Shown here in pieces: positions 1 to 32,000 of a stretch of DNA of 32,000 nt (the first letter of the stretch is position 1; every line of letters begins with the position of its first letter). Both the position numbers and the translations under genes were made by a program. This DNA is from Candidatus Saccharimonadota bacterium (GTDB taxonomy: Bacteria > Patescibacteriota > Gracilibacteria > Absconditabacterales > Absconditicoccaceae), in assembly GCA_965231145.1 (NCBI GenBank), contig OZ246420.1:720001-752000 (forward strand), in the 5' to 3' direction. Below the pieces are notes generated by a model. The model was given only the letters and a program-made list of their open reading frames with translations, was not told where the DNA came from and did no database searches.

Positions 1-2
1 GA

Positions 3-125
3 AATGATGCTTCTAGAATAAAATTCTTCCAGTTGGCGCCTGATCTATGATATTGTATGTCTTTTATGTATGAATATGACTTAAAATCTATACAGGAGAC
101 AATTAATGACTTTATAAGTGATTAA
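3..125 (+). CDS. 3' end of an unidentified CDS entering from the left edge (partial)
   Basis: The frame is open from the window edge to TAA at 123-125, with one in-frame TGA read as Gly. No recognisable motif. Confidence 0.2.
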
Positions 126-141
126 TCTGTAAGGAGTATAT

Positions 142-339
142 TTATTCTTTTTCTAGTGGTCTTTGTGATTCTATTTTCAATCTCTTTTCTCTAGCTAATC
201 TCTCGTTTCTTAAAGCAGTATTTCGTTTCATCATCCAAGCATAATATTTAGGATCATTTTCTTTTGTGACACTCATAAATAGATTAAAAACTTCTGTTAA
301 TGCTTTTCATAAACCGTGGTCATCATCCTTCATATCCAT
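142..339 (-). CDS. Small hypothetical protein (65 aa, basic C-terminus)
   Basis: ATG at 337-339, TAA at 142-144, one TGA-Gly. Sequence MDMKDDDHGLGKALTEVF...ERLAREKRLKIESQRPLEKE. No family recognised. Confidence 0.3.
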
Positions 340-428
340 TTGTTATATAGCAATAAGATAAAAGGACATAATACATACTAATTTAAGTTAGTAAAGAAAT
401 TGCAAAGTAAGGCATTAATCTTATATTG

Positions 429-446
429 ACGTAAATTTAATTACGT
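429..446 (+). promoter_or_regulatory. Palindrome ACGTAA-N6-TTACGT overlapping a TTGACG -35-like hexamer upstream of the ATPase gene
   Basis: Perfect 6-bp arms read directly from the sequence, 13 nt upstream of the ATG at 459. A promoter or operator role is only inferred. Confidence 0.2.
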
Positions 447-458
447 TATTTTATAGAT

Positions 459-2435
459 ATGTGAAGTATAATTAAGGAAAATAGTCCTTATATCCCTAGA
501 TTAATAGGAATATATTTTGCAGAACCTTATAAAAGATTTGATAGATGAACAATTATCAATTTATCGCAAGATTATAATATTAGTAAAACTCCTCAATGAA
601 ATGAATTTAGTGAATTTGATACTTCAAATTCTATTGATTTGTATGTGGAAGAAGAATTATGAGCAATAGTATTAAACATAGAAAAAACATTTAAAGATAC
701 ATTTGGAAGAGTTTTATCTAACGCTATTGAATGATATTCAAATAATATTTCCACAAGAGCTATAATATGAGATAATTGAGCGGGGAAATCAACTATTTTA
801 GAACTTATAGAAGGATTTTATAAAACAGTTAGTCGTAAAATTATTGCTGATTCAATTAATGAATTAAGAGAAGGTTTGGGTTATGTTAATTCTATTATTC
901 CAGGCATAGTTTTTATAATCGTATGTAAAGATATTAAATGAAAAATAAGACATAAATTAGTAAATCTAACAAGAACTCAAGGTATATTAAGCTCTAAGAA
1001 TGAACTTAAATCAATCATTTTAGAAAATTATGATTTGTTAGGATCAGTATTAACGGATCATTTACATATTTGTAAAAACAAAGAGGATGCCGTACCAGTA
1101 ATAAATTTACGCTTACCTAACTTTTCACGTAAAAGTTGAAGAGAAAACATTATACCTTACTGGAACTCTTTAACTATATTTCTCTTTAATCTCATTAAGG
1201 AAGATAATGTTGAAACGTTCTTTCCAAATAACGAAGAAGCAAATTTATTAAATTGATATTTTCTTACAATATATCAATATTTAATAGAAAATAAGATCCC
1301 TAAAGAATCGATAATCTTCTTTTTCCTTTTTTATCATTTAGGATCTTTTGAATATGTGTCTCGCAAAGACTTAAAATATGATCCTCAAAGTGAAGAATAT
1401 AAACAAGTAATATTAGCCCATCAGATTACTATAGATATATATAAAGAAATTGCTCAAAAACATAAATCTACAGAGTATAATGATATAATTTCTAAATTGC
1501 TGTCATTAATAAATGCTTATCAAGATAGTCAAATAACTATTAGTGAAGTAGAAAGCAGAAAAGGATCTGATAGACTTGCGATTAATATGAAAGTTCCACT
1601 TTCTCCTGAATTAAAACTACCAAATATGTATAAATTCATTTTTGAAATCATACCCAAGCATTTAGTGAATGATTTAAAAGTTAGATCTATTCTAGAATAT
1701 AATTTAACTATTCCAATTGCGACTTTCCTTAATAATTTAACTAATATCGAAAACAATGAAACAAAGAAAGATCTATTAAAAGCCATTAAAAATCATTGGC
1801 TATTTACGGTAAATGTTAAATTGCAAACTCCCTCAGGGATACATTATCTCGACTCACTATCATCCTGAGAAAAACAAATGATATTACTTTTTTCTCGCAT
1901 AAAAAATAATATTTCTTCGTATTATGAGAACCCTATTAAAGATGAAGAAAACCAAAAGACATTGCCACATTTGATACTGCTTTTAGACGAGCCTGAAAAT
2001 TCATTACATTTGGAGTGGCAAAGAAAATTTATATATATGTTTCTTAGTAATCTATCATACTTTATTAAGTCTTATAATGTCGAATATATCAGTATTTTTA
2101 TCGCCACACATTCGCCATTTATCATTGGAGATATTCATAAAGATAATATAGTGTTTTTGAGCAGAAAGGTATCCGAATGAGATATAGCCTCATTTTCTCT
2201 TGTAAAAGACCGAGACTCATTAGCTAAGGATAGTAAAATACTAATTGATAATACATTTCTGTGAAATATACCCGAGCTCATAAAATGAGCTTTCTTTTTG
2301 TCGAAACCTTATGGAGAACTATGAGAAAGATTTTTGGAAAATGTCGCAAAGAATAAGCAATTTACACCAGAAGAACTAAAAGCAATCTGTTGAGATGATT
2401 ATTTAATGGAATATCTTTTAATGAAATTTAAATAA
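459..2435 (+). CDS. ABC/AAA_21-type ATPase, Septu PtuA-like (658 aa under table 25)
   Basis: One frame joins track ORFs 1356..1868 and 1878..2180 across about 16 TGA codons. Walker A is II-G-DN-G-AGKST, with TGA at 768-770 and 777-779. ABC signature is LSS-G-EKQ, with TGA at 1866-1868. Walker B is LILLLDEPENSLH and the H-loop is ATHSPFI. TAA at 2433-2435. Confidence 0.85.
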
Positions 2436-2436
2436 T

Positions 2437-3945: not shown

Positions 3946-3967
3946 CGTTTAATTTTTAATAAATAAT

Positions 3968-4741: not shown

Positions 4742-4761
4742 ATTATAGTTTATTTATAAAG

Positions 4762-4795: not shown

Positions 4796-4796
4796 T

Positions 4797-6979: not shown

Positions 6980-8815
6980 ATGAAAAAAGAAGTAGTCAAA
7001 AACTATAAGAGGCAATATGTCATTTATTGCAGAAGATCTTCTGATGAGGCGTCAGGACAACAAATACAGTCTATTCCCGATCAGATCAAGAAATGTATAG
7101 AATATGCTAAAAATAATGATCTTGAGATAGCGTTAAAGCCTAAAGATTTTCCTTTTGAAACAGAAGAAGACCTAAAGAAAGAAGATTTAGAACCTGATCT
7201 AGCATCGAGACAACTATACTTAGATACAAGGCATCTATTTATTATCAAAGAAAGTGAGACAGCGAAAATCCCATATAAGAGGACAAAACGAAGGGGGCTA
7301 ATCGTAATGATAGGGAAGGAGAAAAGTGTACAATGATTATTAAGTTATAGCCCTGATAGGCAAGCAAGAAATATGCTGGAAGGAGGAGAACTTATTAATT
7401 TTGTGGATAAAGAAAATAAGGAATTGGACTTTGATCTTAAGTATACGAATTTTCATTTTGAACCTACAGCTTCGGGCAAGATGATGTTAGGCATTTAGTT
7501 TGTTTTCTCAAAACAGTATTCAGATAAGCTTTCGGAAGATATTAATAGAGGAAAAGAAAGTGCAGTACTGAAAGGTAAATCACAAGGAAGATATAAATAC
7601 TGATATACAAGAGATGAAAAAACAGGTAAGTATATACCTTCGGAAAGATATTTTGAATTAATGAAAAGAGCTTTTGAAATGAAGCTATACGAGAACAAAA
7701 GCGATGAATATATAGCTGAATGGCTTAATGAAATGGGATTTAATAGGGAAACGCTTAATACAAGTAAGTCTGTAAATGATAAGGCATTACATAGAGTGCG
7801 GGTTAATCCTTTCTATTACTGAATGTATATTGAAGGAGAAACGATAACAGATCTTCGTAATGATGAAGATTTTAAACCAATGATTACCGAAGAAGAACAT
7901 ACTATCCTTCTTGAGAGGTATAATAAGCTCTTTGAACGTTTAATGCCAAAAGAAATAAAAAAAGAAAATGAAGAGTTAATGCCGTTACCTAGATGATTTG
8001 TAAGAAATGAAAAATGAGATAGCTTTGCTTTTTATGTGGTTACAAAAGCGAGGTTTCTTAAGAAGTTAGAGAAGATACATCAAACAGATCCTAGCGTTAC
8101 TTTAAAGGATATTGTTAGCACTCATCATATAAGATTTAGAGACACTAACAAAGCCTCGAAGACTTATAATATGGAAATAGCATTTGATAGGATAGATAAA
8201 GCTATTATTAAATCACTTAGCCACCTTAAAATAAGCGATAAAGATTATCAAGAATATGTTAATTATAGAATTGAGGAACTAGATAAACTTAATAAGCAAA
8301 TGAAAGAGCAGTACAGCTTTATTCTTTTGCAACTAAATAGAAAAAAGTCTGAAAAAACTGAATATATGAAAAAGATGATGTGAAGAATCAAAAGAGATGA
8401 TGAACAAAAGATATATGAAAACCATCTAGATTTGCTCGATAGTCAGATAGCATGACTTCAACAGACGATGAACGCCGTTAATAATGAAGAAAGGGACAAA
8501 ATGAAGGAATTTGATGCCCTTGTACAAACCATGCAAAATGCAGTTAGGAAGTACTCAAACTCTACATATGTTCAAAAAAGAAAAATGATAGAATTAATGT
8601 TCTCGAACATAGTTGTAGATAAACAAAAAAGGCTTACCTTTGAGGCAAACCCTTGATTAGATGTCGTATTTAATAAGTTTTTAATGTCATCTGGAGATAA
8701 CTCTATTTTGTTAAACTCTTTTATGAGCGACCTCTACCAAAGGAGGTTCATCATTGGTCATATCTGTACTTTGCTACGCAAAAGCGAAAAATGAAGCAAG
8801 TTACTGATACAGTAG
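6980..8815 (+). pseudogene. Large serine recombinase with a single in-frame TAG (7496-7498)
   Basis: Catalytic N-terminus YVIYCRRSSDEASGQ. The frame continues through TGA codons and joins track ORFs 6980..7336, 8036..8383 and 8468..8656. The one TAG falls between ...GKMMLGI and FVFSKQYSDKLSEDINRGKE, inside the conserved resolvase-domain helix. The frame is otherwise open to TAG 8813-8815. Confidence 0.65.
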
Positions 8816-8893
8816 ACTACAAAAGGGATCTAAACAGAAAAGCAGAGTTAAATCTATATATAACGAATAAATCGCTCATAACATTATATCGTT

Positions 8894-9826
8894 ATGACAC
8901 AGACAAAGAATCCACAAGCACAGCTTGTAAGAAGAACATTAGCCAAGCTCGAAAAGAGTCAAAGGAACAAACGAGACTTTATTAGGTATTTAGAAGAGAG
9001 TAAATCCCCTCTTCTTAAACATACCATAAAAACGAATAGATTGAAAGAATGCGGAAACGTAGTAACTTTTCGCAAACACTTAGAGACAGGAGAAAAACAG
9101 CTACGTTCAGCTAACTTCTGTAAGTATGATAGAGTATGTATTGCTTGTGCTACCAAAAGAGCCATTGGTATGATTAAAAGGTTTGAGCAGGGAATAAAGG
9201 CTCAAAGTCTCTATGAGAAACACCGATACTATATTGTGCTGACCATCAAGCATAATGCATGAGATACTCTTGAAGATCTGATGGCGAAGCTATTGTCTTC
9301 TAAAGAGAAACTTGCAAGAAACTATAGAAACTCAAAAAGGGATGTTCAGAAGAGTAAAAGTTTCTTTACTGCTTTTGATGGCATGGTAATTTCTATTGAA
9401 GTAGCTCATAAGGGGAAAAATGGATGGCATCCACATATCAACATACTGGCTTGTAGCAGTAAAGAAATACCTATAAAACAGGGTATGCATTTAAGAGGTG
9501 ACGTCAATGAACAGCTTCAAAACGAATGGCTTCAAATTACCTGAGATAGCTTTATCCACAATATCCGTAAGATCAACGTAAAGAACGACTACTTTACGAG
9601 AAGCGGGATCGGTGAAGTCTTTAAGTATGCCATTAAGTTTTCTGACCTTACTGTATCACAATTAGCTACCATTATGGAGCTTCAGCAGAAATACCAGTAT
9701 CGTTTCTTCTCAACGTATGGGATTTTTAGAGGTTGGAAAGTGGAAAAAGTGGAACAGAAAAAAGGAGAATGGCATGAAGGTAGCTTTATTTATCAAGAAA
9801 GTATTTGATATAATCTAAAAAACTAG
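8894..9826 (+). CDS. Rolling-circle replication initiator, pC194/pUB110 (Rep_1)-type (310 aa)
   Basis: Motifs LKECGNVVTF...ANFCKYDRVCIACATKRA (Cys cluster), GWHPHINILA (HUH) and GEVFKYAIKFSD (catalytic Tyr). Three TGA-Gly join track ORFs 8894..9262 and 9281..9544. TAG at 9824-9826. Confidence 0.8.
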
Positions 9827-9843
9827 GAGATAATATCTCCTAG
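9823..9843. terminator. Perfect hairpin between the convergent Rep and CDF genes (candidate bidirectional terminator)
   Basis: ctaggagat-aat-atctcctag overlaps the Rep stop codon. A T-rich stretch follows on the + strand. Confidence 0.45.
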
Positions 9844-9867
9844 TTGCTTTGTTCTTAGCTTCATGCA

Positions 9868-10659
9868 CTACTTAGCAAGCTTTAATATCCTAAACGAACC
9901 CCTTGCAACTAAAAGGAACACAATAGTTCCTATTATCAGGTCAGGATAAACTGAATGTGTGAAGTATACAATCACACCTGCAAGAATAACGCCAATATTA
10001 GCTATGACGTCATTTGAGGTAAAAATGTAACTCGCTTCCATATGAGCTTCTTTGCTCTTCTTCTTTTGGAGCAGATACAAAGATGCTGCATTTCCTATCA
10101 AAGCGAAAAGCGAAACCAAAATCATAGTTAGATAGTCAGGAGAACCTTCAAATCCTAAAAATCTACGCAAAACCTCAAATAATCCGAAAACAGCTAACGC
10201 AAGTTGAAAGTATCCACTTAGTTTAGCTACTCTCTTTTTCTTTGACATTATGCTCCCTACGACCATAAGGCTCATACCATAGACAATGGCATCTGCTAAC
10301 ATATCAAGCGAATCAGCAACCAATCCCATTGAGTTTGCTATCAAACCTGTGATGATTTCTATAACAAAAAATCCAGCGTTGATGGCAAAAACAATCCATA
10401 GGAGTTTTTTATCACTCATCTGTTCAGCTTCTCCAATGTTTTCAACTTCTTCTGAAGCTATTAGGCTTGAGTTGAAATTAAGCTCAGCGACACTTTGTTC
10501 AATTGCCTTAGTCTGCCCATCGTGGTAAACTATAAGAGTTCTATTGGGTATATCGAACTCAAGCTTTTTGATTTCCTCGTAAGGTTCTAATTTCATCCTA
10601 ATCATCTGCTCTTCCGATGGACAATCCATCTTAGTAACTTTGAATATTTCTTTTTTCAT
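9868..10659 (-). CDS. Cation diffusion facilitator (CDF) metal efflux transporter with an N-terminal HMA-like domain (263 aa)
   Basis: Uninterrupted track ORF. N-terminal FKVTKMDCPSEEQMIRMKL. CDF TM signature ANSMGLVADSLDMLADAIVYG. No TGA codon at all. Stop is TAG. Confidence 0.9.
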   Translation of the reverse strand: MKKEIFKVTKMDCPSEEQMIRMKLEPYEEIKKLEFDIPNRTLIVYHDGQTKAIEQSVAELNFNSSLIASEEVENIGEAEQMSDKKLLWIVFAINAGFFVIEIITGLIANSMGLVADSLDMLADAIVYGMSLMVVGSIMSKKKRVAKLSGYFQLALAVFGLFEVLRRFLGFEGSPDYLTMILVSLFALIGNAASLYLLQKKKSKEAHMEASYIFTSNDVIANIGVILAGVIVYFTHSVYPDLIIGTIVFLLVARGSFRILKLAK

Positions 10660-10705
10660 ATAATGAGTTTTAGGTAAAGTATTTATGTTTCATACTGTAG
10701 TATAT

Positions 10706-11122
10706 CTAATTGAACTGTATCTGAAAGCTATACATTCCCATAGCACACGTTCCATTAACAACATCTCAAGCTTTTTGTTCTGGCAGTTGCACTATATCAG
10801 ATCATTTTGGATCTAAGTTTTTTGAATAGCTCAGCTCAGGTATTCTTACAGCACTTTCACACCCATAAGCATTTCTCCCCTGTATTTTAATTTCTGTAGG
10901 CATTCCCGCCTTAGCAACAGTCATTTTTGGACTATATCCTTGCCCTGCAGTTATGGTGATTTGTTGCTTTCCATTTACCACTACTACATTTGAAGATGGC
11001 GCAGTTGAGACTGTTCAAGCATTGCTTGAAGTATTATCACCTTTGTAAAGTTTCACACCAGTAACTATACCTCCTACTAAGAGAACAGTTACAATGGCAA
11101 TAATAATGTTTGTTTTTGTCAT
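10706..11122 (-). CDS. Membrane-anchored cupredoxin-like small domain protein (138 aa)
   Basis: N-terminal TM IIIAIVTVLLVGGIV, then VVVVNGKQQITITAGQGYSP...YGCESAVRIPEL...GTCAMGMYSFQIQF. This is the type of protein commonly found next to HMA-permease and copA genes. Three TGA-Gly. Confidence 0.7.
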
Positions 11123-11132
11123 TGAAAAGAGA

Positions 11133-12137
11133 TTAAAGACTAAAGAAAGGCTGTATAATACCCAATGCAACAAGACTGCTTGAGAAGTTATAGAGCGCTA
11201 ATACGATCAAGATAATACCGATTGTTTTGAAGAAGAGGTTTGATGATGATGACTTTTGGATGGATTTTCATGTCACACTCAATAGTAAGAGCATAGGCAA
11301 AGTACCTAAAGCAAAGCTTAACATCGTCAACCCTCATGCTAAGAAGCTACCTGTAGAAAGTGTATATACCTGCATTGACTGTGTGAAACCGCATGGAAGA
11401 AAGAATGTTCCAATACCTATCAGAAGAGGTCAAAGAAATGAATTACCTTTTCAAGAAAAACGCTTAAAGATACCTCATCAAAATGCTACTCCCCCTCTTA
11501 CAACTCATAAAAGATTCAGTCATAGAATGAAGAGAACTACTGCTATAACCATATTTAGCACAATACTTACATTCTGCGAAAGTTGAAACGCTGCACCGAT
11601 CATTCATAAAATCCCTCAAAGAATGAAGAATCCTACAAGTCTTCCAATATGAAAGAGTGAATGCGGGCGAAATGAAGAGTTTTGTGAATATACCGTTCAT
11701 AAGGCTAAAACTACTCACCCTACAACTGCAAGGCAGCTTGATACCGATGCTATCAGTCCAATAATAAATGATGTTCCATACGTCCTATTTTCTGCGTTGA
11801 GCATTTGTAGCAATCCAAGTTTTTGAAGCTCTACAAATCCATATATCAAAGCAGCTGCCATGACAAAGGCAAGGATGTATTCTCACCGATTTATTGTTTT
11901 TTCTTGAGGTTCAGTATGTATACTATAACCATGAGGATGAAGCAAAGGATTCATAATAGCAGATAGCTGTTCAGGTGTCACTTCCTCATCACTATGAATT
12001 ACTTCCACAGTTTGACGTCTAAGACTTACTTTCACATGATTCACACCTTCGATTTCGCTTACTGTATCTTGTATCAAAAAGATACATGCCTTACAGTGCA
12101 TTCCTTTCACATGAAGCGTATGTGCTTGTTGATCCAT
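11133..12137 (-). CDS. HMA domain fused to a DsbD_2/TauE-like multi-pass permease (334 aa)
   Basis: Extends track ORF 11883..12137 (HVKGMHCKACI) through about 14 TGA. TM region has SSCLAVVGG and FFLPCGFTQ motifs. I checked the frame triplet by triplet and found no TAA or TAG. Confidence 0.75.
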
Positions 12138-12165
12138 TATGTAAAGTTTTTTACGAATAAAAGTC

Positions 12166-14436
12166 TTACAGTTTTGTATTTTTCAATCTGAGGCTATTTG
12201 CTACCACGCTTACACTACTCATCGCCATTGCAAGTCCTGCAAAAATAGGATTGAGTAGTACAGGATAAAAGAGACCTGCTGCAAGTGGTATTCATACTAT
12301 GTTATAGATAAACGCCCAAAAGAGGTTTTGCTTGATAGTTGCCATTGTTTTTCTAGAAAGCTTAATGGCTTTTACAAGCTTGCTTATATCTCCTGCTAAA
12401 AGTGTAATATCAGCAGTTTCTATAGCTACATCAGTACCTGTACCCATAGCAATTCCTACGTCAGCTAAAGCAAGTGCAGGCGCATCATTTACACCATCTC
12501 AACACATCGCTACGACCGCTCACTCCTCTTTCAGTGAACGAATTACATCTGCTTTTTGATGCGGCAACACTTCTGCTCTTACATCATCTATTCATACGAG
12601 GGAAGCAATATGTTCAGCGGTTTGTTTGTTGTCTCCAGTTAGCATTACTGCTTTTATTCAAAGACGATGAAGCTCAGCGATTGCTTCTTTCGCATTATCT
12701 TTGATAGTATCTGCGATTCCAAATATGGCCATTACCTCTTTATCTGTAGCAAGGAAGATTGGAGTTTTCCCTTGAGACGTAAGAGTAAGAATATCTTTGA
12801 GGTCATACGTTGCTCATATATCATCCATAAGCTTTATATTACCTGCATACCATGTAGCACCAGCTATTACTCACTCAACCCCTTTTCCTTCAATCATCTT
12901 GAACGAAGAAACTTCTTGAAGCTGCATGTTTTCTTTGCTCGCACTGTTCACAATAGCTTCAGCAAGTGGATGCTCAGATTGCTTTTCAAGGCTCGCTAAT
13001 ATTTGTAAGTCATTGGCTCTATAGTTTCCTATATAATCTACCAGTTCAGGTTTCCCTTTTGTGATAGTTCCTGTCTTATCAAAAACAACAGTTGTTACTT
13101 TATGCATTTTTTGCAGGCTTTCTGCATTCTTTATCAGTATACCCTGTTCTGCTCATTTACCCACACCCACAATAATTGCTGTTGGCGTGGCAAGTCATAA
13201 AGCACAAGGACAAGCAATTACTAATATACTTACAAAGGCAACTATACCCGTTACAAAGTTTCCTGTAATAATCCACACTATGAGTGATATTATTGCTAGA
13301 ATCAAGACGATTGGCACAAATATTGAAGAGATCTGGTCAGCAAGTTTTTGAATTGGAGCTCTTGATCCCTGGGCTTCCTGTACCATGTGGATAATATGCG
13401 CCAGCATACTATCTGACCCTAAAGACGCAGCTTTCACCTTGAGAAATCCTTGTTTATTTATTGTCCCTCAAATAACTTTCTCTCATTCTTTTTTCTCTAC
13501 TGGCATAGATTCACCTGTAATCATAGATTCATCTATACTGCTTGATCCACTGGCAATGATACCATCAACGGGAATTTTCGATCATGGCTTGATAAGTATA
13601 ATATCATTTTGTTGTACCTGCTCTATAGATATTTCCATTTCTTTTCCGTCTCTTTCTACGATCGCTGTTTTTGCTTGAAGGTTCAAAAGCTTTTCGATTG
13701 CTTCACCAGTTTTAAGCTTTGATTTCGTCTCAAGATATTTTCCATAGTAGATGAAACCAATAACGACAATAACCACATCATAGTAATGAATGCTCACATC
13801 TAAATAAGGAGCAAGAACCTCTTCAAATGCGCTTACTATAAAGCTATAAATGAATCAGACGAGAGTTCCAAGTCATATCAAGGTTTCCATACTTGCGACA
13901 CCAGTTTTCAAGAATCTCCACAAAGCTATGATGTATTGTTTACCAATAACAAATAATACATACGTGGCCATGAGAGGGAATGTATGATGCCAAAGCTCAT
14001 ATAGCCATTCTGACATTTCAGGAAAAAACCCTTGCTTACCTCATATATCAAGAATCATATATACAAAACTCAAAACCACAAAAGGAATGATGATGTTAAT
14101 GTTTTTTTTCATCCCTTTTATCTCTTCAAGCTTTTCGTCTTTCGTTTGATTCATCCCTAAATGAGCTGCATGTTCATCTGCTGACATTTTAGAATGATCC
14201 ATCTTACTATGATCTACTTTTGGAGCAGAGCCAATAAGCTGATACCCCATAGGCTCAATAGACCTATTCATATCTTCTATACTCACCGTTTCAGGATCAA
14301 AGTTAAGCTTAGCAGTATCAGTAGCAATATTCACTTCACATTCTTCCACTCATGGAAGCTTTTTGAGTGACTTTGTGATATTATGTGCACAGCTGGCACA
14401 GTGCATCCCTTTCACTTTATATGTATCTTGCATCAT
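12166..14436 (-). CDS. copA: Copper-translocating P1B-type ATPase (756 aa)
   Basis: Joins track ORFs 12871..13107, 13195..13437, 13582..13797 and 14041..14349. Motifs are GMHCASCA (HMA), [39 protein letters not shown] and [16 protein letters not shown] checked the whole frame for TAA and TAG. Confidence 0.95.
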
Positions 14437-14460
14437 TCTTTTGCTAGAAAGTAAAATATA

Positions 14461-15600
14461 TTATGGAGTTCACCCTATTCAGTTTGTCCAAATACTTATA
14501 CCATTGGGCATTTTACCTACTGGAATAGTACTCTCAACTTTATTATCTATATTATTTATAACTGTGACCGTATTACTAAGAAGATTTGTAACATATGTTT
14601 TCTCTCCATTTGGAGATATAACTACTCCATGTGGAGCTTCTCATCCTATATACTTTTCTACAACATCAAGACTATTTGCATCAATTTTATAAATACTACT
14701 TCCAACAGGTTCATCAAAATAATATCACTGATCTGCCACATAAATATATGCACTATCTGGCGTAGAATATAGCTGTATTGGTCATACTGATCACTCTGGC
14801 AAACTCACCGTCTTAACTTCTTTACTAGCAATCTCATAACGAGCAATACTTTTAGCATTGTAGAGAGAAGCAAACACGTACTTATTATCTGGCGTTACTG
14901 CCACCTGAATTACTTTTCAATTCAATGGAATGATTTCTGACGTATAAGTCACTGTATCTATCTTCGCTATTCATCTTTCTCCTATAAGTGCAACATAAAG
15001 CGTTGTCCCATTGGCAGATAAACGCAATCAGTGAGGCTGCGCTCAATCAGGCAATACTACTGTTTGTTTTACTTTTTTGGTTGTTAAGTCTACTACATAG
15101 ACCTTTCATTTATCCTGAGACGTAACATATGCTGTACTATCGTCATGACTTATTACTGCATGTGCTAGATGCGCTCACTTATCAAGGCTAACACGTCAGA
15201 TAACAGTATCGGTCAGCGGATCGATGATAACTAACTCATCGTTATTTGTTTCTTCTACCGTATGTCATTCTTTTTCATCTTCCTTTATGTTCGCTGTTAT
15301 AACTACTACTGTTCCTTTGGGTCATACTTGGACATTATGTGCCGAGAACGATAAAAGCTTACCATAGTATTGCTCTGTTAAGCTTATTGTTTTTATCACA
15401 GTATTTTTATCTGCATCGATAACACTTACTGCACTTTCTCATTCATTTGCTATGTATATCTTCTGATTTACTGACATATTAATATCTTGTTTTTTCTCAA
15501 ACGAGAAATTTCTATTCGCTCATTTTATCGTCAACATCAACCATAATAAGAGCCCAAAGGCAAATACACCAATAACTACAACAACTCATTTGTATTTCAT
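14461..15600 (-). CDS. YVTN-family beta-propeller repeat protein with an N-terminal signal anchor (379 aa)
   Basis: The frame is open only under table 25; about 18 of about 31 Gly codons are TGA. Repeats of the type YIANE-G-ESAVSVID, AYVTSQDK-G-KVYVVD and KTYVTNLLSNTVTVI. Confidence 0.8.
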
Positions 15601-15627
15601 ATCTGTATAGCTTAGAAAGTAAAAAAG

Positions 15628-15906
15628 CTATTTTCTCGTGCTTACATCCCGTACTCTTACTAACTCATCTACAAACTCCTCTACTTCAGCTTTGTCTTTT
15701 GAAACCAGCTTAGTCTTACCACAGCACTTCAAATGGTTTTTGAGAAGTTGTCTGTTTGCTTCTTTTAAAAGACCTTGAGCTGCGTTGATTTGGTTCGCAA
15801 TATCAGCACAATAAATATCGTTCTCGATCATCTGTAAGACTTTATCTAATGTGCCTCTAGCCTTCTTAACTCACATTGAGATCTTATCCTTATTACTTCA
15901 AAGCAT
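15628..15906 (-). CDS. csoR: CsoR/RcnR-family metal-sensing repressor (92 aa)
   Basis: Extends track ORF 15628..15831 upstream through 2 TGA to ATG 15904-15906. KKARGTLDKVLQMIENDIYCADIANQINA...NHLKCC gives the C...H...C ligand pattern of the DUF156 family. Confidence 0.85.
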
Positions 15907-15932
15907 GGTTCATAACTTAATGGTAAAACATG

Positions 15933-15947
15933 ACCCTATGGTAGGGT
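15933..15947. promoter_or_regulatory. Candidate CsoR operator (inverted repeat ACCCT-N5-AGGGT)
   Basis: Lies 27 nt upstream of the csoR start. It resembles the G/C-tract inverted repeats bound by CsoR-family repressors. Confidence 0.35.
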
Positions 15948-16045
15948 TATAGCAAAGATACCTATTATTGCAAGGGGAAATAAAAGCTGAGTTGCATCTT
16001 ATCACTAAAAGCGTACATATAAGATATTTACTCATCAAGATCGAC

Positions 16046-17272: not shown

Positions 17273-17359
17273 TGCTACGCCCTTCAGCAAAGGGAAATTT
17301 ACTGGGATGGTTTTTCACACGCTTCCTTAGCAGGAAGAGAAGAGCCTACCCCGACTGTT

Positions 17360-17527
17360 ATGACCACAGATAAAGTAAGGGACATTCTATGAGAAGAGTA
17401 TCAAGATCTTCCTGATGAGAAAATCCAAGACATCATCAAGATCTGCAGAGCTATCGCAAGATACGCTATCGAAAACTACTCAGAAATCTCAAAGAAACAC
17501 AACCCTGAAGAGGAACAAGACGCTTAA
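17360..17527 (+). CDS. Small acidic protein (55 aa) upstream of recombinase 2; related to the 25947..26138 product
   Basis: MTTDKVRDILGEEYQDLPDEKIQDIIKICRAIARYAIENYSEI. Pattern D..I.DII..C..IA.Y.IEN matches E..L.EFIN.CKRIANILIDYAEEN upstream of recombinase 3. Confidence 0.45.
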
Positions 17528-17541
17528 CAGCGTCTTTTCTT
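17519..17541 (+). terminator. Rho-independent terminator
   Basis: gacgct-taac-agcgtc followed by ttttcttt. It overlaps the stop of the small ORF. Confidence 0.5.
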
Positions 17542-17633
17542 TGACCAAGAACAATAAAGTAAGTTGAACTTGCATTATTACATAATAAGACTATGAATGA
17601 GCTAATTATTTGTATCTTTCGAGAGTTTAACAA

Positions 17634-19358
17634 ATGGCAAGAAAAAGAAATCTTTTACAGTACGATATTGCCAATCAAAGTCCTGTGTTTTCTGCTTGAG
17701 AAAAAGTAATAGATAAAGGCAAGAAGCAGTGAATCATCTATGCAAGAGTTTCTACAGAAGAACAAAAGAAAGATGGAAATGGGATAAATGCTCAAATCAC
17801 TGACTGTAAGAATTGGGCAAAAAGAAACGAAGTTGAGGTAGTAAACATATATACTGATGAAGCTATATCCTGAACAGATCTAACAAGACCATGATTCAAT
17901 ACAGCTATCAAATTCATAGAACAACAGAACAAGAAAGGAAACTTCATTGAGTATTTTATATGTAACTCCACTTCAAGATTTTCAAGATCACCTGAACTAT
18001 GAAAAACTTTTGATATGGTAGGAAGGGTACAGATAGCCTGAGCTAAGTTAGTCTCTGTAGGTAACTGATGAGTAATAGAGACCAATACTGAAGAGTGACT
18101 TATACAATCAACACTGAGCTTCATGAGTGATGCTCTTGAATCTATGAAAGGAAGTAAAAGAGTGAAATATGGTCTTAAAGGAAAAATCTATGAAGGATTG
18201 CGACCATTTTCTCAATGTCCTATGGGATACGAAAGAATAGTAATAGAAAGATGAGGTAGAAACATAAAGAAGCTTATCAGAAAAGAACCTCATGCAACCA
18301 TCCTTGCAGATGGTCTTAAACTCTTTGCTGACTGATCTCTTATGACGAAGCAAGATCTCTTTCTCTATTTTGAGGAACAATGACTAAGATCAAACAGCAA
18401 GAAGAACAAACAAGAAAAGCTTCATAAAAGCGTAGTGTATAATACAATCTTAGATCTATGGAAACTGTATGTGTATGCAGGCTATCTGACGTATCCACCA
18501 CTCTGAATAAATGAGCTTATTCCAGCAGATCATCCTGCGCTTATAGATTTAGATACTCTCAGCAAGATCATGAAGAGGTTGAGCTATGATAAAGAAACAG
18601 TAAACCAAGAAACAAAAAAATACGATATGGATTCTCAAGACTACCCTCTTACAAGAATACTACAATGTGAAGAGTGCTGAAAATGAGTAACCAAGCGAAA
18701 GTCGAAATCTAAGACCTGAGACTATCACCATTACTATGGTTGCAACAACCCTGATTGCACCTTACATAAAAAGTCTATCAAAAGAGACGAAGTACATAAT
18801 GCAGTAAGAGAGAAGCTTACTACTCTTTCTGTTTGAGACAAAATGATAAAGGTCTTAGAGTTAGTTTACAAAGAAGAATTACAACTCATTACCAAAGACA
18901 AGAAGGTAAGAAACAAATCAAAAGAAGAAAGGATTGCAAACCTACAGAAAGAAATGAAAGCCTTAGAAAACATCATGGAAAAAATAACGAACGATCAACT
19001 CTTCCAGAAGAAACAGGAAGAATGGGCAAAACTCAATCAAGAAGTTGAGAATATCCATAAGGAGATAGACGATCAAGACTTCCAAAAAGATGAACAGGAT
19101 AAAGTCTTTAATGAAGCAAAGACTATTTTATGCAATCCTGCCGCTATCCGAGATTTTGGAGATGCTGAATTAAAGCAGTTAGTAATTAGGGTGTGCTTCA
19201 ACAACAAAATTATGTATAAAAAAAATCAAGGGTTGCACACCCCTGAAATATCAGGTATCTATTTAGCTAAAGAGCGATTATCATATTCGTCATTACGTAA
19301 ATCTGGAGACATTGAGTTTATTTCTGAACACCTATGACTTGACTGAGGGTGAATTTAA
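17634..19358 (+). CDS. Large serine recombinase (574 aa)
   Basis: Motifs IIYARVSTEEQ (catalytic Ser), SG-TDLTRP-G-F, Zn ribbon CEEC-G-K...YYGCNNPDC, and coiled coil (track ORF 18843..19337). The frame is continuous from ATG 17634 through about 20 TGA. It reads past TGA 19335-19337 to TAA 19356-19358. Confidence 0.9.
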
Positions 19359-25946: not shown

Positions 25947-26138
25947 ATGAAAGCCATTCAACCTATAACGGTTGAACTCGCTAGGGATATGGTGTGACAT
26001 TTAGTCAGTGAAAATTGTGAAGATACGGAGTTACTCGAGTTCATTAATAATTGTAAAAGGATAGCAAATATCTTGATTGATTATGCTGAAGAAAATATTT
26101 TAAAAGATTTACCATCTTACGAAGAAAAAGATGAGTAA
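25947..26138 (+). CDS. Small acidic protein (63 aa) whose stop overlaps the recombinase 3 start
   Basis: ATG 25947, TAA 26136-26138, overlapping ATG 26131 of the recombinase. Related to the 17360..17527 product. Confidence 0.5.
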
Positions 26139-27750
26139 AAAAGCAGTAGTATATACAAGAATATCTTCAACCACTCAAGAGAGTTGAGGTTGATTAGGTA
26201 GCCAAGAAACGTCTTGCAGACAATATTGCGAAAGAAAAGGTTATGAAGTAATAGAGGTTTTCCAAGATGTATTCTCATGAGGAGAACTTAACAGACCTTG
26301 AATAAAGGCTATGTTCAATTTTATTGATGACTATAATCGCAAAAATACGGAAAAAATTAGTGTGTTTGTTACTCATAGTATTAATAGAATAGCTAGAGAT
26401 TATAAGGTACATCTTGAGCTTACTACAGAATTATTAATGAGAAAAGTAAACTATGAAACTGTAGATATGACCTTCGAGCGTACTCCCATGGGTAAATACA
26501 TGGAATGAATGATGGCGTTGAATGCTGAATTCTTTAGAACAGAAAATAAAGAAAGAGTTATCTCTAGACAGGAAGCTAGATTATTAGATGGTTATCGACC
26601 ATTTGACCATCCTACCGGATATAGAACTACCTATGCTCTCGGTGGATGAAAATTACTTATTGCAGATGAACCTAATGCTTCAATTATTAAAGAAGCCCTT
26701 GAAGGATATGCAAATGATATATTTAATAGTATAGATGAGGTAGCTAAATTTTTACAGCAAAAGGGCTTAAATTTATATAGAATTAGAAACAAGAAAAGAG
26801 AATGAAAATATAATTATGTTCATAAATCATTGGCATGAAGAATGCTAAAGCAAATTTTATATACCGGTTATATCGCATATAATAAGGTTACTTTCGATAA
26901 AAACTGATTAATAAAGAAAGAATGGAACATTCCATTGAGGAAAGGTAGGCATGAGTGAATTATCGACTTATCGACATATTATAAAATTCAGGAAAAACTA
27001 AATGGAAAAAGACCTTATGAAAAGGAAACTAAAGCTATAAACGAGAATTTCCCTTTAAGGTGATATATTGAGTGTGATTGTTGTAATCTAAAATTTAGTT
27101 CGGGCTTATCAAGAAGCAAAAATAGAAAACAAGTCCCTTATTATCAATACAATAAAGGATGTATACATAAGGGGAAATCTATTAATGCAAATAAATTGCA
27201 CACAGACTTTGATAACCTAATTCAAGATAGTCAAATAAATGATGAATTTCTTAATTTTATGAAACTAGTAATAGCATCCGAATATGAACAAAGGAAAATA
27301 GACAAAAAACAAAATAAACAGAGTTTTGAAAAAGAGGTAAAATCTATAGATAATCAGGTGAATAATTTAGTTAATAGTCTTGCTTCTTCATCTTCTAATC
27401 TCGCAAGAACAAGAATTGAGCAAAAAATAGACGAGTTAGAAATGAGAAAGGTTAATATTAATGAGCAAATGAGTGAGGATAATAGTGAAGAATTAAGTAG
27501 CAAAGTAATAGAAATAGCGTGCTCTATTATAGAAGACCCATATTATATATGGAAAGATGGCAATATATCACAAAAACAATCTCTATTAAATATATTGTTC
27601 AGAAAAAAAATCCCAGTCAATAAAATGACCGGAACTTTCTGAACACTACCTTTTAGTAGTTTCTACCTGTTTTCTAGCAATATTTCAAAAGATAAGTTTC
27701 AACATTTGGAGGTGACGAGACTCGAACTCGTGTCTAAAAGTCATGCATAG
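26131..27750 (+). CDS. Large serine recombinase (539 aa) whose 3' end overlaps the tmRNA gene antisense
   Basis: Motifs VVYTRISSTTQES (catalytic Ser), FS-G-GELNRP-G-I, Zn ribbon CDCCN...YYQYNKGC, and coiled coil (track ORF 27196..27642). Under table 25 the TGA at 27640-27642 is Gly. The frame then runs on as ...TLPFSSFYLFSSNISKDKFQHLEVTRLELVSKSHA to TAG 27748-27750. Confidence 0.85.
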
Positions 27751-28056
27751 ATCCTTACTACCATCATAGTCTGTGAATTTCTCCCGGAGGCTATCTGAGC
27801 CCGCGACAGGCATCGATACTTTAATATATGTTTTAAGCCCACATAATCGGCTGGTTTTCCTGCTCATCACTCGGGCCTAGCAGGAGTCAGGGGCCGAGTT
27901 TAGGCTTTAACTACGCAGCATATGCGTAATTGAAAGCTGACAATCTCATGTTAGAGTTTGCATGTTTTGGTGAACGATTATTTTATCCTCGGTACGTTCG
28001 TCGAGCGATGGCTAGATATACACATGGGGTACTTCTATCAATACCAGCACACCCCC
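27707..28056 (-). ncRNA. ssrA: tmRNA (transfer-messenger RNA)
   Basis: 5' GGGGGTGTGCTGGTATTGATAG pairs with 3' CACCTCC-A, giving a G3-U70 Ala identity pair. T-arm is ACGAG-TTCGAGT-CTCGT. Internal tag frame GCA AAC TCT AAC ATG AGA TTG TCA GCT TTC AAT TAC GCA TAT GCT GCG TAG (27961..27911). CCA is not encoded. Confidence 0.9.
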
Positions 28057-28117
28057 ATATATAATATACGAATTATACTTATTTCTGTGACGATTTACCA
28101 GTGTATTATAGTATCTG

Positions 28118-28447
28118 CTAAGCCATAGCAAGCTGTTTTACTCTTTTGGGAATAGCAGCCAATTTTTTGCTTTCTTCTTTATCTAAGCTTAGCTGGTAGA
28201 CATCATACATATTTTGTAATCCTATCCATACTTGTGCGGAAGTGCCAAATGCGGCTCACACACGGGAAGCAATCCTTGGGGTAACGTTTCTACGTTCCTT
28301 GAGGATATTATTTAATTCTGACTTATCAATTCCCAAAATGTCAGCAAATTGTTTCTGTGATCGTCCTCTTGCTGCAATTTCTTCACGTATGTATTCACCT
28401 GGGTGAAAAGCCATAGGCACTCTGCTATTACGCATGATAATAATCAT
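28118..28447 (-). CDS. higA: HigA-type antitoxin (XRE-family HTH)
   Basis: Extends track ORF 28256..28447 through one TGA: ...AFHPGEYIREEIAARGRSQKQFADILGIDKSELNNILKERRNVTPRIASRV-G-AAFGTSAQVWIGLQNMYDVYQ...; TAG at 28118-28120. Confidence 0.85.
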
Positions 28448-28461
28448 TAATGATAAAAACT

Positions 28462-28764
28462 TTATTGATAGTGATTATTAATCTCTATTATTCATACAAC
28501 CTGTATCTCTTTGATTTGATTAACTGTGAATATTAATCTTCGAGCCTTATTTAGTCTGACACTTTGCTGACCATCACGATCACCATTAAGCTTTTCACAA
28601 TGCAGGCCACCGATAGCATATGCATCTCTTATATCAGATGCCTTTATAAAAAAGTTTATCCATTTGATATAACTTCTGATAATGTCAGGATGAAATCTTT
28701 TAGACTTTCATTCCCGATATAGTTCCTCTAGCTTAGGATCATGAAAAATCACCTGCATGGGCAT
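28462..28764 (-). CDS. higB: HigB/RelE-type toxin (plasmid maintenance system killer, 100 aa)
   Basis: ATG 28762-28764, TAA 28462-28464, 2 TGA-Gly. MPMQVIFHDPKLEELY...GGLHCEKLNGDRDGQQSVRLNKARRLIF fits the HigB pattern. It lies immediately upstream of higA. Confidence 0.8.
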
Positions 28765-28813
28765 TTTTTTATTTGTAAAATAATATTTTTGTTTTTGCAC
28801 TTATCAAATGAAG

Positions 28814-28871
28814 GTTTTCAGAATACTCAACTTTTCATAAAAATCAAGAAAAAGTTGAGAGTTTTGAAAAC
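28814..28871. repeat. Long imperfect inverted repeat (22-nt arms, 19 of 22 matching, about 13-nt loop)
   Basis: gttttcagaatactcaactttt ... aaaagttgagagttttgaaaac, located between tRNA-Leu and the higBA start. Confidence 0.5.
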
Positions 28872-28993
28872 TATTATCTCTGTGTAATATTATCAAATAG
28901 AAGTATATTCTTATATAAAAAATCCGCCTCAAAGAGCGAATTATTCGTAGGTAATATTTTTTACTTTATGAACTTTCTACGTTATAAACTCTA

Positions 28994-29078
28994 TGGTACC
29001 GGAGAAGGGACTCGAACCCTCACATCTTGCGACATACGCACCTGAAGCGTACGTGTCTACCAATTCCACCACCCCGGC
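28994..29078 (-). tRNA. tRNA-Leu (anticodon CAG), class II with a long variable arm, CCA encoded
   Basis: The reverse complement GCCGGGGTGGTGGAATTGGTAGACACGTACGCTTCAGGTGCGTATGTCGCAAGATGTGAGGGTTCGAGTCCCTTCTCCGGTACCA closely parallels E. coli tRNA-Leu(CAG). Anticodon loop is TT-CAG-GT. Confidence 0.95.
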
Positions 29079-29186
29079 TTATATTAATTAACAATTATTA
29101 ATGTACAATTAATAATCGGCATAATATATGCTTTCTATGAGTATTTTCAATCTTAGATAGACAAATACTAACTTACTATAATTGCT

Positions 29187-29756
29187 CTACACTTTTAGTG
29201 ACCCACGGAAACCTCTTGCAGCATAGTATGACTCTGCACCATTGTGATAGGTGAACACCATATCATAGCGACGATCACAAAAGATGGCACCGCCAAGTTT
29301 TCTAATATCTGAAGGCGTCTTTACCCAACTTGATGTTTTTGTATCAAACTCCCCTAGCGTCTGGAGCTCTCTATACTGCTCTTCTGTTAGTATTTCAATA
29401 CCCATGCCCGTCGCCACATCCAGAGCATTATCTTTTGGCTTATGCTCTTTTCTCGACTGCCATGCCGCGCGATCATAACACAAACTTCTGCGTCCCTTCG
29501 GAGACTCTTCTGCACAGTCAAAAAATACATATTCATTTTTCTTTTTATCGTATCCTACGACATCTGGCTCTCCGCCAGACGCTTCCATCTCATGAAGCGA
29601 CCACAGCTTTTCAGGATGAGACTCCAGCTTTTTTTCTATCTTTTCCCATACAAGGCCTTTATGACGACTCATATTTTCCTCAAAACGGTCTTTCAATGCG
29701 CTCAGTAATTTTCCTTTCTGCTGTTGTGATAGCTCTTTTTGATTTTGCTTTGACAT
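29187..29756 (-). CDS. DUF4256-family protein (189 aa)
   Basis: Uninterrupted track ORF. The motif LWSLHEMEASGGEPDVVGYD matches what I remember of DUF4256. No TGA codon. Stop is TAG. Confidence 0.85.
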   Translation of the reverse strand: MSKQNQKELSQQQKGKLLSALKDRFEENMSRHKGLVWEKIEKKLESHPEKLWSLHEMEASGGEPDVVGYDKKKNEYVFFDCAEESPKGRRSLCYDRAAWQSRKEHKPKDNALDVATGMGIEILTEEQYRELQTLGEFDTKTSSWVKTPSDIRKLGGAIFCDRRYDMVFTYHNGAESYYAARGFRGSLKV

Positions 29757-29951
29757 AATATGCTACTTAAGGCATAAAGAATTGGTTTTAAGCTACTCAA
29801 TAAAGCAATATTTTTCAAGCGATTTTACTATGTCTTATAAAAAGTCTATTTACCAGACGCGATACAACATAAGGTAAAGTCTTGTAATAAAATTACAAAA
29901 TACTATATTGACTCAACAAAATAACTCGCCTCTTTATCTTCTTCTAAAATC

Positions 29952-31265
29952 ATGAAATATATGAGAAAAAAATTACTCTTATCATTTTTAGCTATTATAT
30001 GAATGTGCTTTGCCGGCGTCTCGGCTGCAGGTTACTGTACTCTGGAGTTTGGGCGAGGCACACCAGAGGGGGATTACATTGCAAGAGTACTTTTAACAGG
30101 TAACAGTAATGTATTGGATAATGTAACTGTGGGTGCATCATCTCCTTTTTATACTCATTATAATACATGAGTAACTCTTACGGGAGGACAATCATATAGC
30201 ATAACCATAAGAGTAGGAACTTTCCCTTGATCTACTCAATCAGTAGCTGCTTGGATAGATTACGATCAAAATGATGTATTTGAAGCAAGCGAAAAACTAT
30301 GAGAAACAACATCTATGGGGCCAGATACTTATACCACTTTTTCTTTTTCAGTACCAATGACATGAGTCAATGGGACAACAAGAATGCGCGTATTGGAGTC
30401 GTCATACGGTACAAATCTTGATCCATGTGCACCAGCATGGCTCTATGGAGAAACAGAAGATTATGACATCACTCTCATATGAATGGCAACAGCGGCTCCC
30501 ATCGGTGGTGAAGGTTATAGAAAACTCCCTATAGACAATTGTCCGGATAAAGATATTTCGCCTACACCCTACGATGGGTTATGCGCGGGCATGAGTCCGT
30601 TCATTGGTGGGATACTGGCCGACTCAATTAATACTGCTACAGCAACTGGATCAAATAACATGACCGGAGAGGTGTCGTTCTCTACAGGAGATATAAACAA
30701 CGATGCGACAACTGGAACCCATGAACTTATAGAGGATCCTTCTTCTATGAATGCGGCAGCCAGATGTACAGATAGTGAAGAACAAAGTGCATATGAGTTT
30801 TGAATGAGTCATGCGATAACATCAAAAGAGACATGCCTTTCGGCTGATATGAATGGAGGGCTCATCAGGATCGATGCAGCAAAAATGATAGTAAATTTCG
30901 CTATGAATGTACTCGACAGAAGACCAGATTCGACCAAAAAATGTGTATTTAATGATATGACTGATCAATCAGTAGAGACACAAGAATATGCATTAAAAGC
31001 CTGCCAGCTTGGTCTTATGGGGCTTAAGGGAAATGGGACTCCTGCTGCGATGTTTCACCCAAATGAACTCGTTAATAAGGCTCAGTTCGTCTCTGCCCTT
31101 TCAAGATTACTCTATGGAGAAGCTCACAACTCAAAAAGAACATGTCGATATTGTATGCATGCACAGGCACTCAAGGATGCTTCTATTATAAATCTCACCA
31201 ACGATCTTATGCAGCCTATCAAAAGAGGTCGAGCAATAATCATGTTCATGAGAGTAACAAAATAA
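29952..31265 (+). CDS. Secreted protein with a GEVED-type domain and C-terminal SLH-like repeat(s) (437 aa)
   Basis: Signal peptide MKYMRKKLLLSFLAII-G-MCFAGVSAA. AWIDYDQNDVFE...RMRVLES...LYGETEDYDITL is the GEVED motif. C-terminal FNDMTDQSVETQEYALKACQLGLMGL...FHPNELVNKAQFVSALSRLLYG is SLH-like. Joins track ORFs 30483..30803 and 30804..31265 to the upstream region through 7 TGA. Confidence 0.8.
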
Positions 31266-31290
31266 AGCAGCCGCCACAGGCTGTTTTTCT
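31266..31290 (+). terminator. Rho-independent terminator
   Basis: cagcc-gccaca-ggctg followed by tttttct, immediately after the TAA. Confidence 0.6.
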
Positions 31291-31342
31291 CTATTTACTA
31301 AAGTAATGCGATTTACTATAATGTGTAAACTATCATATTCAT

Positions 31343-31627
31343 ATGAAGAAAACTCTCAGAACGTGTCCACAGTGACACCAATACTATAAAAGTTCGGACT
31401 GCCCAACATGTCCGTTTTGTGCAAATGAAAAGAAGCCTACAAGAGGTTTTCTTACAGAGCTGTCTGCACCTGCAAGGCGCGCATTACAATCTGCAGGTAT
31501 TCGTACTATAGAGCAACTGGCAGCTCATACAGAAAAGGATCTACTCACACTCCATGGGTTTTGACCTGCATCGCTCCCCATACTCAGAAAGATATTACAT
31601 GCGCATAAACTCTCTTTTAAAAAGTAG
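31343..31627 (+). CDS. Small Zn-ribbon plus helix-hairpin-helix protein (RNA polymerase alpha-CTD-like family, 94 aa)
   Basis: TCPQ-G-HQYYKSSDCPTCPFC then LSAPARRALQSAGIRTIEQLAAHTEKDLLTLHGF-G-PASL. ATG 31343, TAG 31625-31627. Confidence 0.75.
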
Positions 31628-31672
31628 CATGATTGCTATTATCCGATCATATTTAGTTCATATATCTCTCTC

Positions 31673-32000
31673 ATGCAAAAAATCACTCCTTTCCTCTGGT
31701 TCGATAAACAGGCTGAAGAAGCTGCACAATTTTATACTTCTCTTTTTAAAAATGGTTCCGTGGGAACTATCGCTCGCTATCCTGAAGGCGTGCCAGGGTG
31801 ACAAGCCGGTTCAGTTATGACAGTATCTTTCTCGATAGATGGAACAGAATTTGCTGCGATCAATGCGTGACCTATCTTTACGCTCAACCCTTCCGTATCA
31901 TTTTTTGTAACGTGTCAATCCGCTGAGGAGGTAGAGATGTATTGGAACAAGCTTATAGAAGGTGGAAAAGCACTTATGGAGCTTGGAAGTTATCCGTTTA
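31673..32000 (+). CDS. PhnB/VOC-like protein (3-demethylubiquinone-9 3-methyltransferase-domain family), 3'-truncated by the window edge
   Basis: MQKITPFLWFDKQAEEAAQFYTSLFKNGSVGTIARYPEGVPG-G-QAGSVMTVSFSIDGTEFAAINA-G-PIFTLNPSVSFFVTCQSAEEVEMYWNKLIEGG. Two TGA fall at conserved Gly positions. Confidence 0.8.

Follow-up and report, generated by a model that had tools for sequence, protein, structure and literature searches.

How is a stretch of DNA to be translated when its conserved genes are interrupted again and again by TGA? The question is raised by the 32,000 nucleotides analysed here (contig OZ246420.1, positions 720,001 to 752,000; hereafter the window), which carry, among other genes, copA (encoding a P1B-type copper ATPase), a gene encoding a YncE/YVTN beta-propeller protein and three genes encoding large serine recombinases. 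The reading that we regard as highly probable is that the window is chromosomal DNA of the recoded Absconditabacteria/BD1-5 group, in which UGA is read as glycine, and CGA and CGG as tryptophan, in all genes. The first of these reassignments is well established: according to PMC8629427, which cites Campbell (2013) and Rinke (2013), NCBI translation table 25 is the code of Candidate Division SR1 and Gracilibacteria. The new part is the support for CGA and CGG as tryptophan codons, an assignment present in no NCBI table. In Absconditabacteria, this assignment was predicted together with UGA as glycine by Shulgina and Eddy (2021) using Codetta (PMC8629427).

Under the standard code, no stop-to-stop frame of the whole window is longer than 273 amino acids (aa). 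When TGA is taken as a sense codon, 14 frames reach at least 300 aa and the longest has 1255 aa. TAA and TAG were also considered as sense codons and rejected, since neither gives a single frame of at least 300 aa in the window. Likewise, no frame of this length was found in 200 shuffled sequences in which local composition was kept, the longest frame free of TAA and TAG having 250 aa. Taken as a whole, the pattern is far beyond chance. We accepted 26 frames as genes, which represent 86% of the window (9015 codons) and contain 206 in-frame TGA; a second count over these frames gave 212 TGA and, before the terminal stops, neither TAA nor TAG. Among these genes, 15 end with TAA, 10 with TAG and none with TGA, while all three stop triplets are common in the other two frames. 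Moreover, from 27336 to 32000 (4.7 kb) the window agrees at 100% identity with an independent Logan assembly (ERR4405440), so the in-frame TGAs are not assembly noise. Public contigs identical to this DNA, traced by means of the DUF4256 gene, occur in runs ERR4405439-41 and SRR36443210, and a 160-kb ENA contig (ERZ27239171 k141_890605) comes from a close relative. Gene calls made with the standard code on this identical DNA are fragments of 55-234 aa. An earlier note on the window, made from its sequence, had claimed that any standard-code annotation would be fragmented, that calling with table 25 would lengthen the frames and that full-length frames end solely in TAA or TAG, and it was right on these three points.

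That TGA encodes glycine in this organism is, in our view, nearly certain. TGA codons were masked as X and four proteins were compared with homologues of normal tryptophan content, i.e. homologues from standard-code organisms. At the 16 TGA columns of CopA, 91 such homologues display 76.5% of glycine, 8.9% of alanine and no tryptophan. Glycine reaches at least 86% in 12 of these columns, and 83.6% in the columns of the protein's own GGN (glycine) codons. The solved CopA structures 3j09 and 3rfu have glycine at CPCAL-G-LATP, GK-G-AE, G-DGxNDAP and other TGA positions. For YncE, where the 91 homologues are distant, 48% of the residues at the 18 TGA columns are glycine; seven of these columns are near-invariant, all with at least 68% glycine and six with at least 81%. 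A TGA located three codons upstream of the TAA stop of this gene also aligns to a conserved glycine. When CopA, YncE, a serine recombinase and HigB were pooled, the mean glycine frequency was 0.50 at 52 TGA columns and 0.70 at GGN columns; glycine was the majority residue in 28 of the TGA columns and tryptophan in none.

The codons of orthologues point to the same amino acid. At seven other loci, the non-identical partners of TGA are GGA (80 cases), GGT (25), GGG (18) and GGC (7), for a total of 130. With TGA as glycine, UGA makes up about 37% of the glycine codons, and the glycine content is 6.2%, compared with 4.0% without TGA. Column alignments and codon interchange thus agree with the claim of the earlier note that TGA is a glycine codon, neither a stop nor tryptophan. 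TGA was indeed present at the six coordinates that it cited, on the strands given. The two CopA sites (CPCAL-TGA and GK-TGA-AE) are invariant as claimed, with glycine found in every one of the 91 standard-code homologues as well as in both structures. The Walker A site of the AAA_21-type ATPase (II-TGA-DN-TGA-AGKST) does align to the GGSGSGKST motif of ABC transporters, although local matches are weak (E = 0.04). In the same protein, we infer that LSS-TGA-EKQ would hold the glycine of the ABC signature. In contrast, the site of the PhnB-like gene (AINA-TGA-P) is not an invariant glycine: solved homologues carry tyrosine, asparagine or arginine there, and lysine, aspartate or proline at a second TGA of this gene. 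The PhnB site is not diagnostic, and one of the four examples given was therefore overstated.

Then, CGA and CGG were considered. We hold it very likely that CGA encodes tryptophan, and likely, with less assurance, that CGG does so in this organism. In the genes of the window, 25 CGA and 9 CGG (34 in total) are found next to 51 TGG and 188 AGA, the last being the dominant arginine codon. This corresponds to 27.7 CGA, 10 CGG and 56.6 TGG per 10,000 codons. If CGA and CGG (hereafter CGR) are tryptophan, they represent about 40% of the tryptophan codons, and the tryptophan content is 0.94%, against 0.57% otherwise. As was done for TGA, these codons were masked before being placed in alignment columns. 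In the middle of the three recombinases, the CGA at aa190 (18201-18203) corresponds to tryptophan in six of seven standard-code homologues and to phenylalanine in the seventh. The CGA at aa506 (19149-19151) corresponds to tryptophan in six of seven and to tyrosine in the most distant one, while a further CGA (19275-19277) falls in a variable column. In a PDB search, no solved structure extended to the recombinase column in question. The paralogous recombinase-2 has a CGA in the same tryptophan column as aa190 (its aa156), and TGG in the column of aa506. The CGG of the third recombinase faces TGG in a paralogue and leucine in standard-code homologues.

The CGA at aa75 of the HigB/GraT-like toxin aligns to the tryptophan of 'NDQWR' in PDB 6f8s_B. 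In this column, the 127 library representatives, searched for with a stretch of HigB free of TGA, show 48 tyrosines, 43 tryptophans, 21 phenylalanines and 6 arginines; four of these six arginines belong to the four closest matches, which are presumably recoded relatives. The CGA of the HigA-like antitoxin aligns to a buried isoleucine or valine in solved HigA structures. Over the six CGR columns that could be pooled, the mean tryptophan frequency was 0.35 and neither arginine nor lysine was the majority residue in any of them. By comparison, the 38 columns of AGA, AGG, CGT and CGC codons gave 0.41 arginine and 0.19 lysine.

The cleanest test of the meaning of CGA and CGG is the comparison of codons between orthologues. 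In CopA, YncE and the DsbD protein, all 10 non-identical partners of CGG and 7 of the 8 of CGA are TGG. In a second comparison, CGA or CGG faced TGG 10 times, never AGA, AGG, CGT or CGC, and one CGG-CGA pair was observed; the partners of AGA were AGG or AAA-type codons, never CGA or CGG. In addition, relatives have CGG at invariant tryptophan columns, namely CopA 388 and 707 (tryptophan in 91 of 91 homologues) and YncE 371 (85 of 85). One of these relatives, L005 (CAYRCS010000016.1), is the sole match among GTDB representatives. Its YncE, encoded beside CopA, is 65% identical to that of the window and contains 21 TGA. This genome has CGG on invariant tryptophan columns, and its recoding is that of the window. 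In another relative (L008), a CGR codon of the AGOG glycosylase falls on a tryptophan of 'WWWEF', according to four solved structures.

Several observations nevertheless weigh against this double reassignment or one of its parts. Some TGA columns hold alanine, serine, aspartate or variable residues and not glycine, as is expected of a synonymous glycine codon at unconstrained sites. Only 6 of the 34 CGR codons of the window could be pooled against standard-code homologues. The CGA at aa355 of the middle recombinase (18696-18698) corresponds to cysteine in these homologues (to TGG in orthologues). The CGG at aa17 of HigB falls in a variable polar column (glutamate, threonine or lysine), and two adjacent CGR codons in the AGOG gene of L008 align to lysine/leucine/glutamate-alanine. 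For the CGA at aa111 of the Rep_1 protein, the register is ambiguous among five plasmid homologues (leucine, arginine or proline), so that it was not used as a test; one register read by hand puts it on a conserved arginine. As for CGG, the two codons examined in the window are split between a TGG in a paralogue and a variable polar column, and the support comes mostly from relatives. ARAGORN detected no transfer RNA (tRNA) with a UCA, UCG or CCG anticodon in the window or in the flanking loci retrieved from this organism and related ones, and none of this DNA contained a release-factor gene. Lastly, the NCBI title of L005 is 'uncultured Candidatus Peribacteria bacterium'. This label is probably mistaken, or else the recoding is wider than reported; NCBI labels in this group often conflict with GTDB over the applicable code (bioRxiv 10.64898/2026.05.24.727570).

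Some of these points would suit plain table 25, in which CGA and CGG stay arginine and their placement in tryptophan columns reflects real arginine/tryptophan substitutions or chance. Arginine would fit HigB aa17 and the hand-read register of Rep_1, the pool is limited to six codons, and the available DNA holds no tRNA evidence on how CGR is read. We consider this explanation improbable, because the orthologue partners of CGA and CGG are TGG (17 + 10 times over the two comparisons) and never another arginine codon. Moreover, arginine in place of tryptophan at CopA 388 and 707 and at YncE 371 would be a substitution tolerated in none of the 91 and 85 standard-code homologues. In addition, the columns in which CGA falls are tryptophan or aromatic ones, both in HigB and in a pair of paralogous recombinases. 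The proposal of table 25 in the earlier note is thus correct for UGA and incomplete for CGA and CGG, which behave as tryptophan; 34 codons would still be mistranslated with it.

A table 4 code (Mycoplasma type), in which UGA is tryptophan, is what was used for public gene calls on this DNA. The public proteins P0001 (YncE; 14461-15600), P0124 (CopA; 12166-14436) and P0244 (17634-19358) were translated with table 4, with tryptophan at every TGA and arginine at CGA and CGG. The low guanine-plus-cytosine (GC) content of the window (0.27-0.41) would agree with such a code. However, the residues at the 16 CopA columns are glycine and never tryptophan, TGA is exchanged with GGN and not with TGG in orthologues, and the implied tryptophan content (2.85%) is implausible. 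Furthermore, the table 4 calls stem from heuristics based on coding density, which are blind to the difference between tables 4 and 25 (bioRxiv 10.64898/2026.05.24.727570). UGA as tryptophan was therefore rejected, its probability being negligible. The standard code, with TGA as true stops in a decaying, pseudogene-rich region or one with assembly errors, or else as selenocysteine or read-through codons, is just as improbable and was rejected on the alignments: table 11 does yield frames of up to 273 aa and one recombinase has a genuine-looking in-frame TAG, but the 26 genes contain 206 in-frame TGA against this one TAG and no TAA, the TGA sites are kept as TGA or GGN in orthologues of independent assemblies, 4.7 kb are identical in an independent assembly, TGA aligns to glycine and not to cysteine or selenocysteine, and full-length Pfam domains run across TGA codons uninterrupted (E1-E2_ATPase [2-180/181], Hydrolase, HMA, DsbD_2, Resolvase, DUF6978 and DUF1828/1829).

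With UGA as glycine and CGR as tryptophan, each of the tables in use gives faulty proteins. Table 11, which was applied to further assemblies of this DNA and left their gene calls fragmented, cuts every gene of the window into pieces of 55-270 aa. Table 4 turns 206 glycines into tryptophans, including those of the CopA catalytic motifs and of the Walker A motif, and table 25 still writes 34 tryptophans as arginine. Database proteins from this lineage are then systematically wrong at about 3% of their residues, and these translation errors spread to protein databases, family profiles and structure predictions for the lineage. The CGR signal is an independent support, at the level of alignments and of codons, for one of the few proposed reassignments of sense codons in bacteria. 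It further shows that the integrative elements of these hosts use the same code. If host and mobile DNA indeed share a private code of three codons, the window would give independent backing, at the sequence level, to a reassignment that has so far rested on a single computational screen.

Compared with known codes, the window has in common with table 25 UGA as glycine, UAA and UAG as the only stops, a low GC content and fragmented standard-code calls; it differs from it in that CGA and CGG remain arginine codons in table 25. The code predicted by Codetta for Absconditabacteria shares with the window the reassigned UGA and CGA, probably also CGG, AGA as the dominant arginine codon, a GC content within the reported range, and CGA and CGG that are rare yet approach the frequency of TGG. 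This code is a computational prediction to which no NCBI table corresponds, and the support brought here covers 32 kb and relatives, not a whole genome. Table 4, used by Mycoplasmatales/Entomoplasmatales and insect endosymbionts, resembles the window by a sense UGA in a low-GC, reduced genome, whereas it reads as tryptophan a codon whose columns are glycine here.

The share of TGA among glycine codons drops with rising gene GC across the window, from about 0.5-0.67 in genes with a GC of 0.26-0.30 to 0-0.18 in those with a GC of 0.41-0.43. The extremes are the DUF4256 gene (0 of 14) and a CzcD-like gene (9868-10764; 1 of 17). This trend may reflect mutational bias or the recent acquisition of genes from standard-code donors.

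The lineage was inferred from how the codons behave and from the neighbours of the proteins, since rRNA and ribosomal-protein markers are absent from the window. Recoded uncultured bacteria are its closest relatives, and the nearest named standard-code homologues of CopA and YncE belong to Patescibacteria/CPR (candidate phyla radiation). Since UGA as glycine together with CGA as tryptophan is the signature reported for Absconditabacteria (PMC8629427), the source would best be placed, as far as these sequence features tell, in the recoded Absconditabacteria (SR1) / BD1-5 'Gracilibacteria' group, as an uncultured bacterium of low GC content; its expected position in GTDB would be Absconditabacterales, class JAEDAM01. 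A near-identical recombinase (94%, from the public translation) is carried by several contigs, and the sample of one of them bears the label of a wastewater metagenome.

The decoding machinery is deduced rather than seen, because the available DNA includes no tRNA or release-factor gene of the kinds sought. From the literature (PMC8629427; bioRxiv 10.64898/2026.05.24.727570), UGA would be decoded by a tRNA-Gly(UCA) after the loss of release factor 2, CGA and CGG by a tRNA(UCG)/tRNA(CCG) whose tryptophan identity would be marked by G73 and the lack of A20, and CGU and CGC by tRNA(GCG). The codon meanings themselves come from the alignment columns and the codon interchange described above: UGA as glycine and CGA and CGG as tryptophan in every gene, those of the three islands included, termination at UAA and UAG only, and arginine encoded by AGA, AGG, CGU and CGC. 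In one relative, a cluster of nine tRNAs was found, whose only tRNA-Gly has a UCC anticodon. The features of the window are collected in Table 1. The peptides of the transfer-messenger RNA (tmRNA) tag differ widely among the related recoded genomes L008, L011, L013 and L021 (e.g. ANNKFAKTSNSVYNLVKGAFAPAYTFA and ANSNRAAGLNLNRFNAYAFA); the stop codon of the tag was read for the tmRNA of the window only.

Table 1. Coordinates of the features discussed in the text (positions within the window)
Feature	Position	Strand	Remarks
Whole window	1..32000		26 genes that can be read only if TGA is a sense codon; 206 in-frame TGA, 25 CGA, 9 CGG; stops TAA/TAG
AAA_21-type ATPase	459..2435	+	16 TGA; Walker A TGA at 768-770 and 777-779; signature-like TGA at 1866-1868
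Large serine recombinase (third)	6980..8815	+	In-frame TAG 7496-7498; CGG 7799-7801
HMA + DsbD_2 membrane protein	11133..12137	-	13 TGA, 1 CGG
copA, P1B-type Cu ATPase	12166..14436	-	16 TGA, including 13195-13197 (CPCAL-G) and 13153-13155 (GK-G-AE)
YncE/YVTN beta-propeller	14461..15600	-	18 TGA
Large serine recombinase (middle)	17634..19358	+	20 TGA, 4 CGA
Large serine recombinase (recombinase-2)	26131..27750	+	12 TGA; CGA 26596-26598 (aa156); overlaps the tmRNA gene, 3' end to 3' end
tmRNA gene	27707..28056	-	Tag frame ANSNMRLSAFNYAYAA ends in TAG
HigA-like helix-turn-helix antitoxin	28118..28447	-	CGA 28361-28363
HigB/GraT-like toxin	28462..28764	-	CGA 28540-28542 (aa75), CGG 28714-28716 (aa17)
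tRNA-Leu(CAG)	28994..29078	-	Only tRNA of the window
DUF4256 gene	29187..29756	-	GC 0.43; 14 glycine codons, 0 TGA; same reading under all these codes
PhnB-like (PF06983) gene, truncated where the window stops	31673..31999	+	TGA 31868-31870 in a variable column

The window lies in the neighbourhood of the chromosomal tmRNA and tRNA-Leu genes. Three tandem blocks, each closed by a large serine recombinase gene reading toward the tmRNA gene (ends at 8815, 19358 and 27750), look like successive insertions of islands at this gene. The last recombinase gene overlaps the 3' end of the tmRNA gene by about 44 nucleotides, and orthologues of the middle one abut and overlap tmRNA 3' ends in several other genomes. 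No convincing long direct repeats marking the ends of the islands were found in the window, as would be expected for serine recombinases. The middle block forms a copper island, which encodes CsoR, YncE, CopA, the HMA-DsbD_2 protein, a cupredoxin-like protein, Rep_1 and the recombinase. From 8692 to 19309, it shares 88-91% nucleotide identity with L008 (1534-11676), whose tmRNA and tag differ. The similarity breaks off at window position 19309, where 'TGGAGA' is the 3' terminus of the L008 tmRNA. Matches to this island are also present in L021 and L022, and next to the tmRNA gene in a third genome. The island is mosaic, a CzcD-like gene (9790-10705) and a gene of 408 aa (15988-17359) not being common to L008.

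The genes of the islands are all TGA-dense, with CGA. Because the copper island is 88-91% identical in genomes with differing tmRNAs, it seems that recoded hosts exchange these islands. Whether host and mobile DNA share the code with UGA as glycine and CGA/CGG as tryptophan, with islands that move between recoded hosts and are unreadable in standard-code bacteria, and a code that may reach the lineage labelled Peribacteria, is a proposal for which we see about even chances. Prophages and phages of Absconditabacteria/Gracilibacteria that use table 25 are likewise TGA-dense and readable in the code of the host only (PMC10746230). Like them, the islands of the window are mobile DNA rich in in-frame TGA that needs the host code. 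Unlike them, they have no phage structural genes, carry copper-resistance, defence-like and Rep_1 cargo, and have recombinases near the tmRNA gene.

The in-frame TAG of the third recombinase gene, with which no other TAA or TAG in frame compares among the 26 genes, lies in the region encoding the catalytic domain, in a column occupied by leucine, methionine or serine in homologues. A nonsense mutation (pseudogene) or a sequence error probably explains it, rather than a recoding. Some of the island cargo is defence-like. Between 459 and 4741, the AAA_21 ATPase gene (weak similarity to AriA/PARIS) is followed by genes encoding a cysteine-rich protein of 298 aa, DUF6978 and DUF1828/DUF1829, and a protein of 1253 aa of the PIN-TPR-GreABC type is encoded between 20913 and 24674. 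The genes of the HigB/GraT-like toxin and of the HigA-like antitoxin (28118-28764) lie between the tmRNA and tRNA-Leu(CAG) genes. The Logan contig ERR4405440_131026, from the same strain, ends at window position 27336, inside the recombinase gene adjacent to the tmRNA gene, a break that would be compatible with differences in island content between strains.

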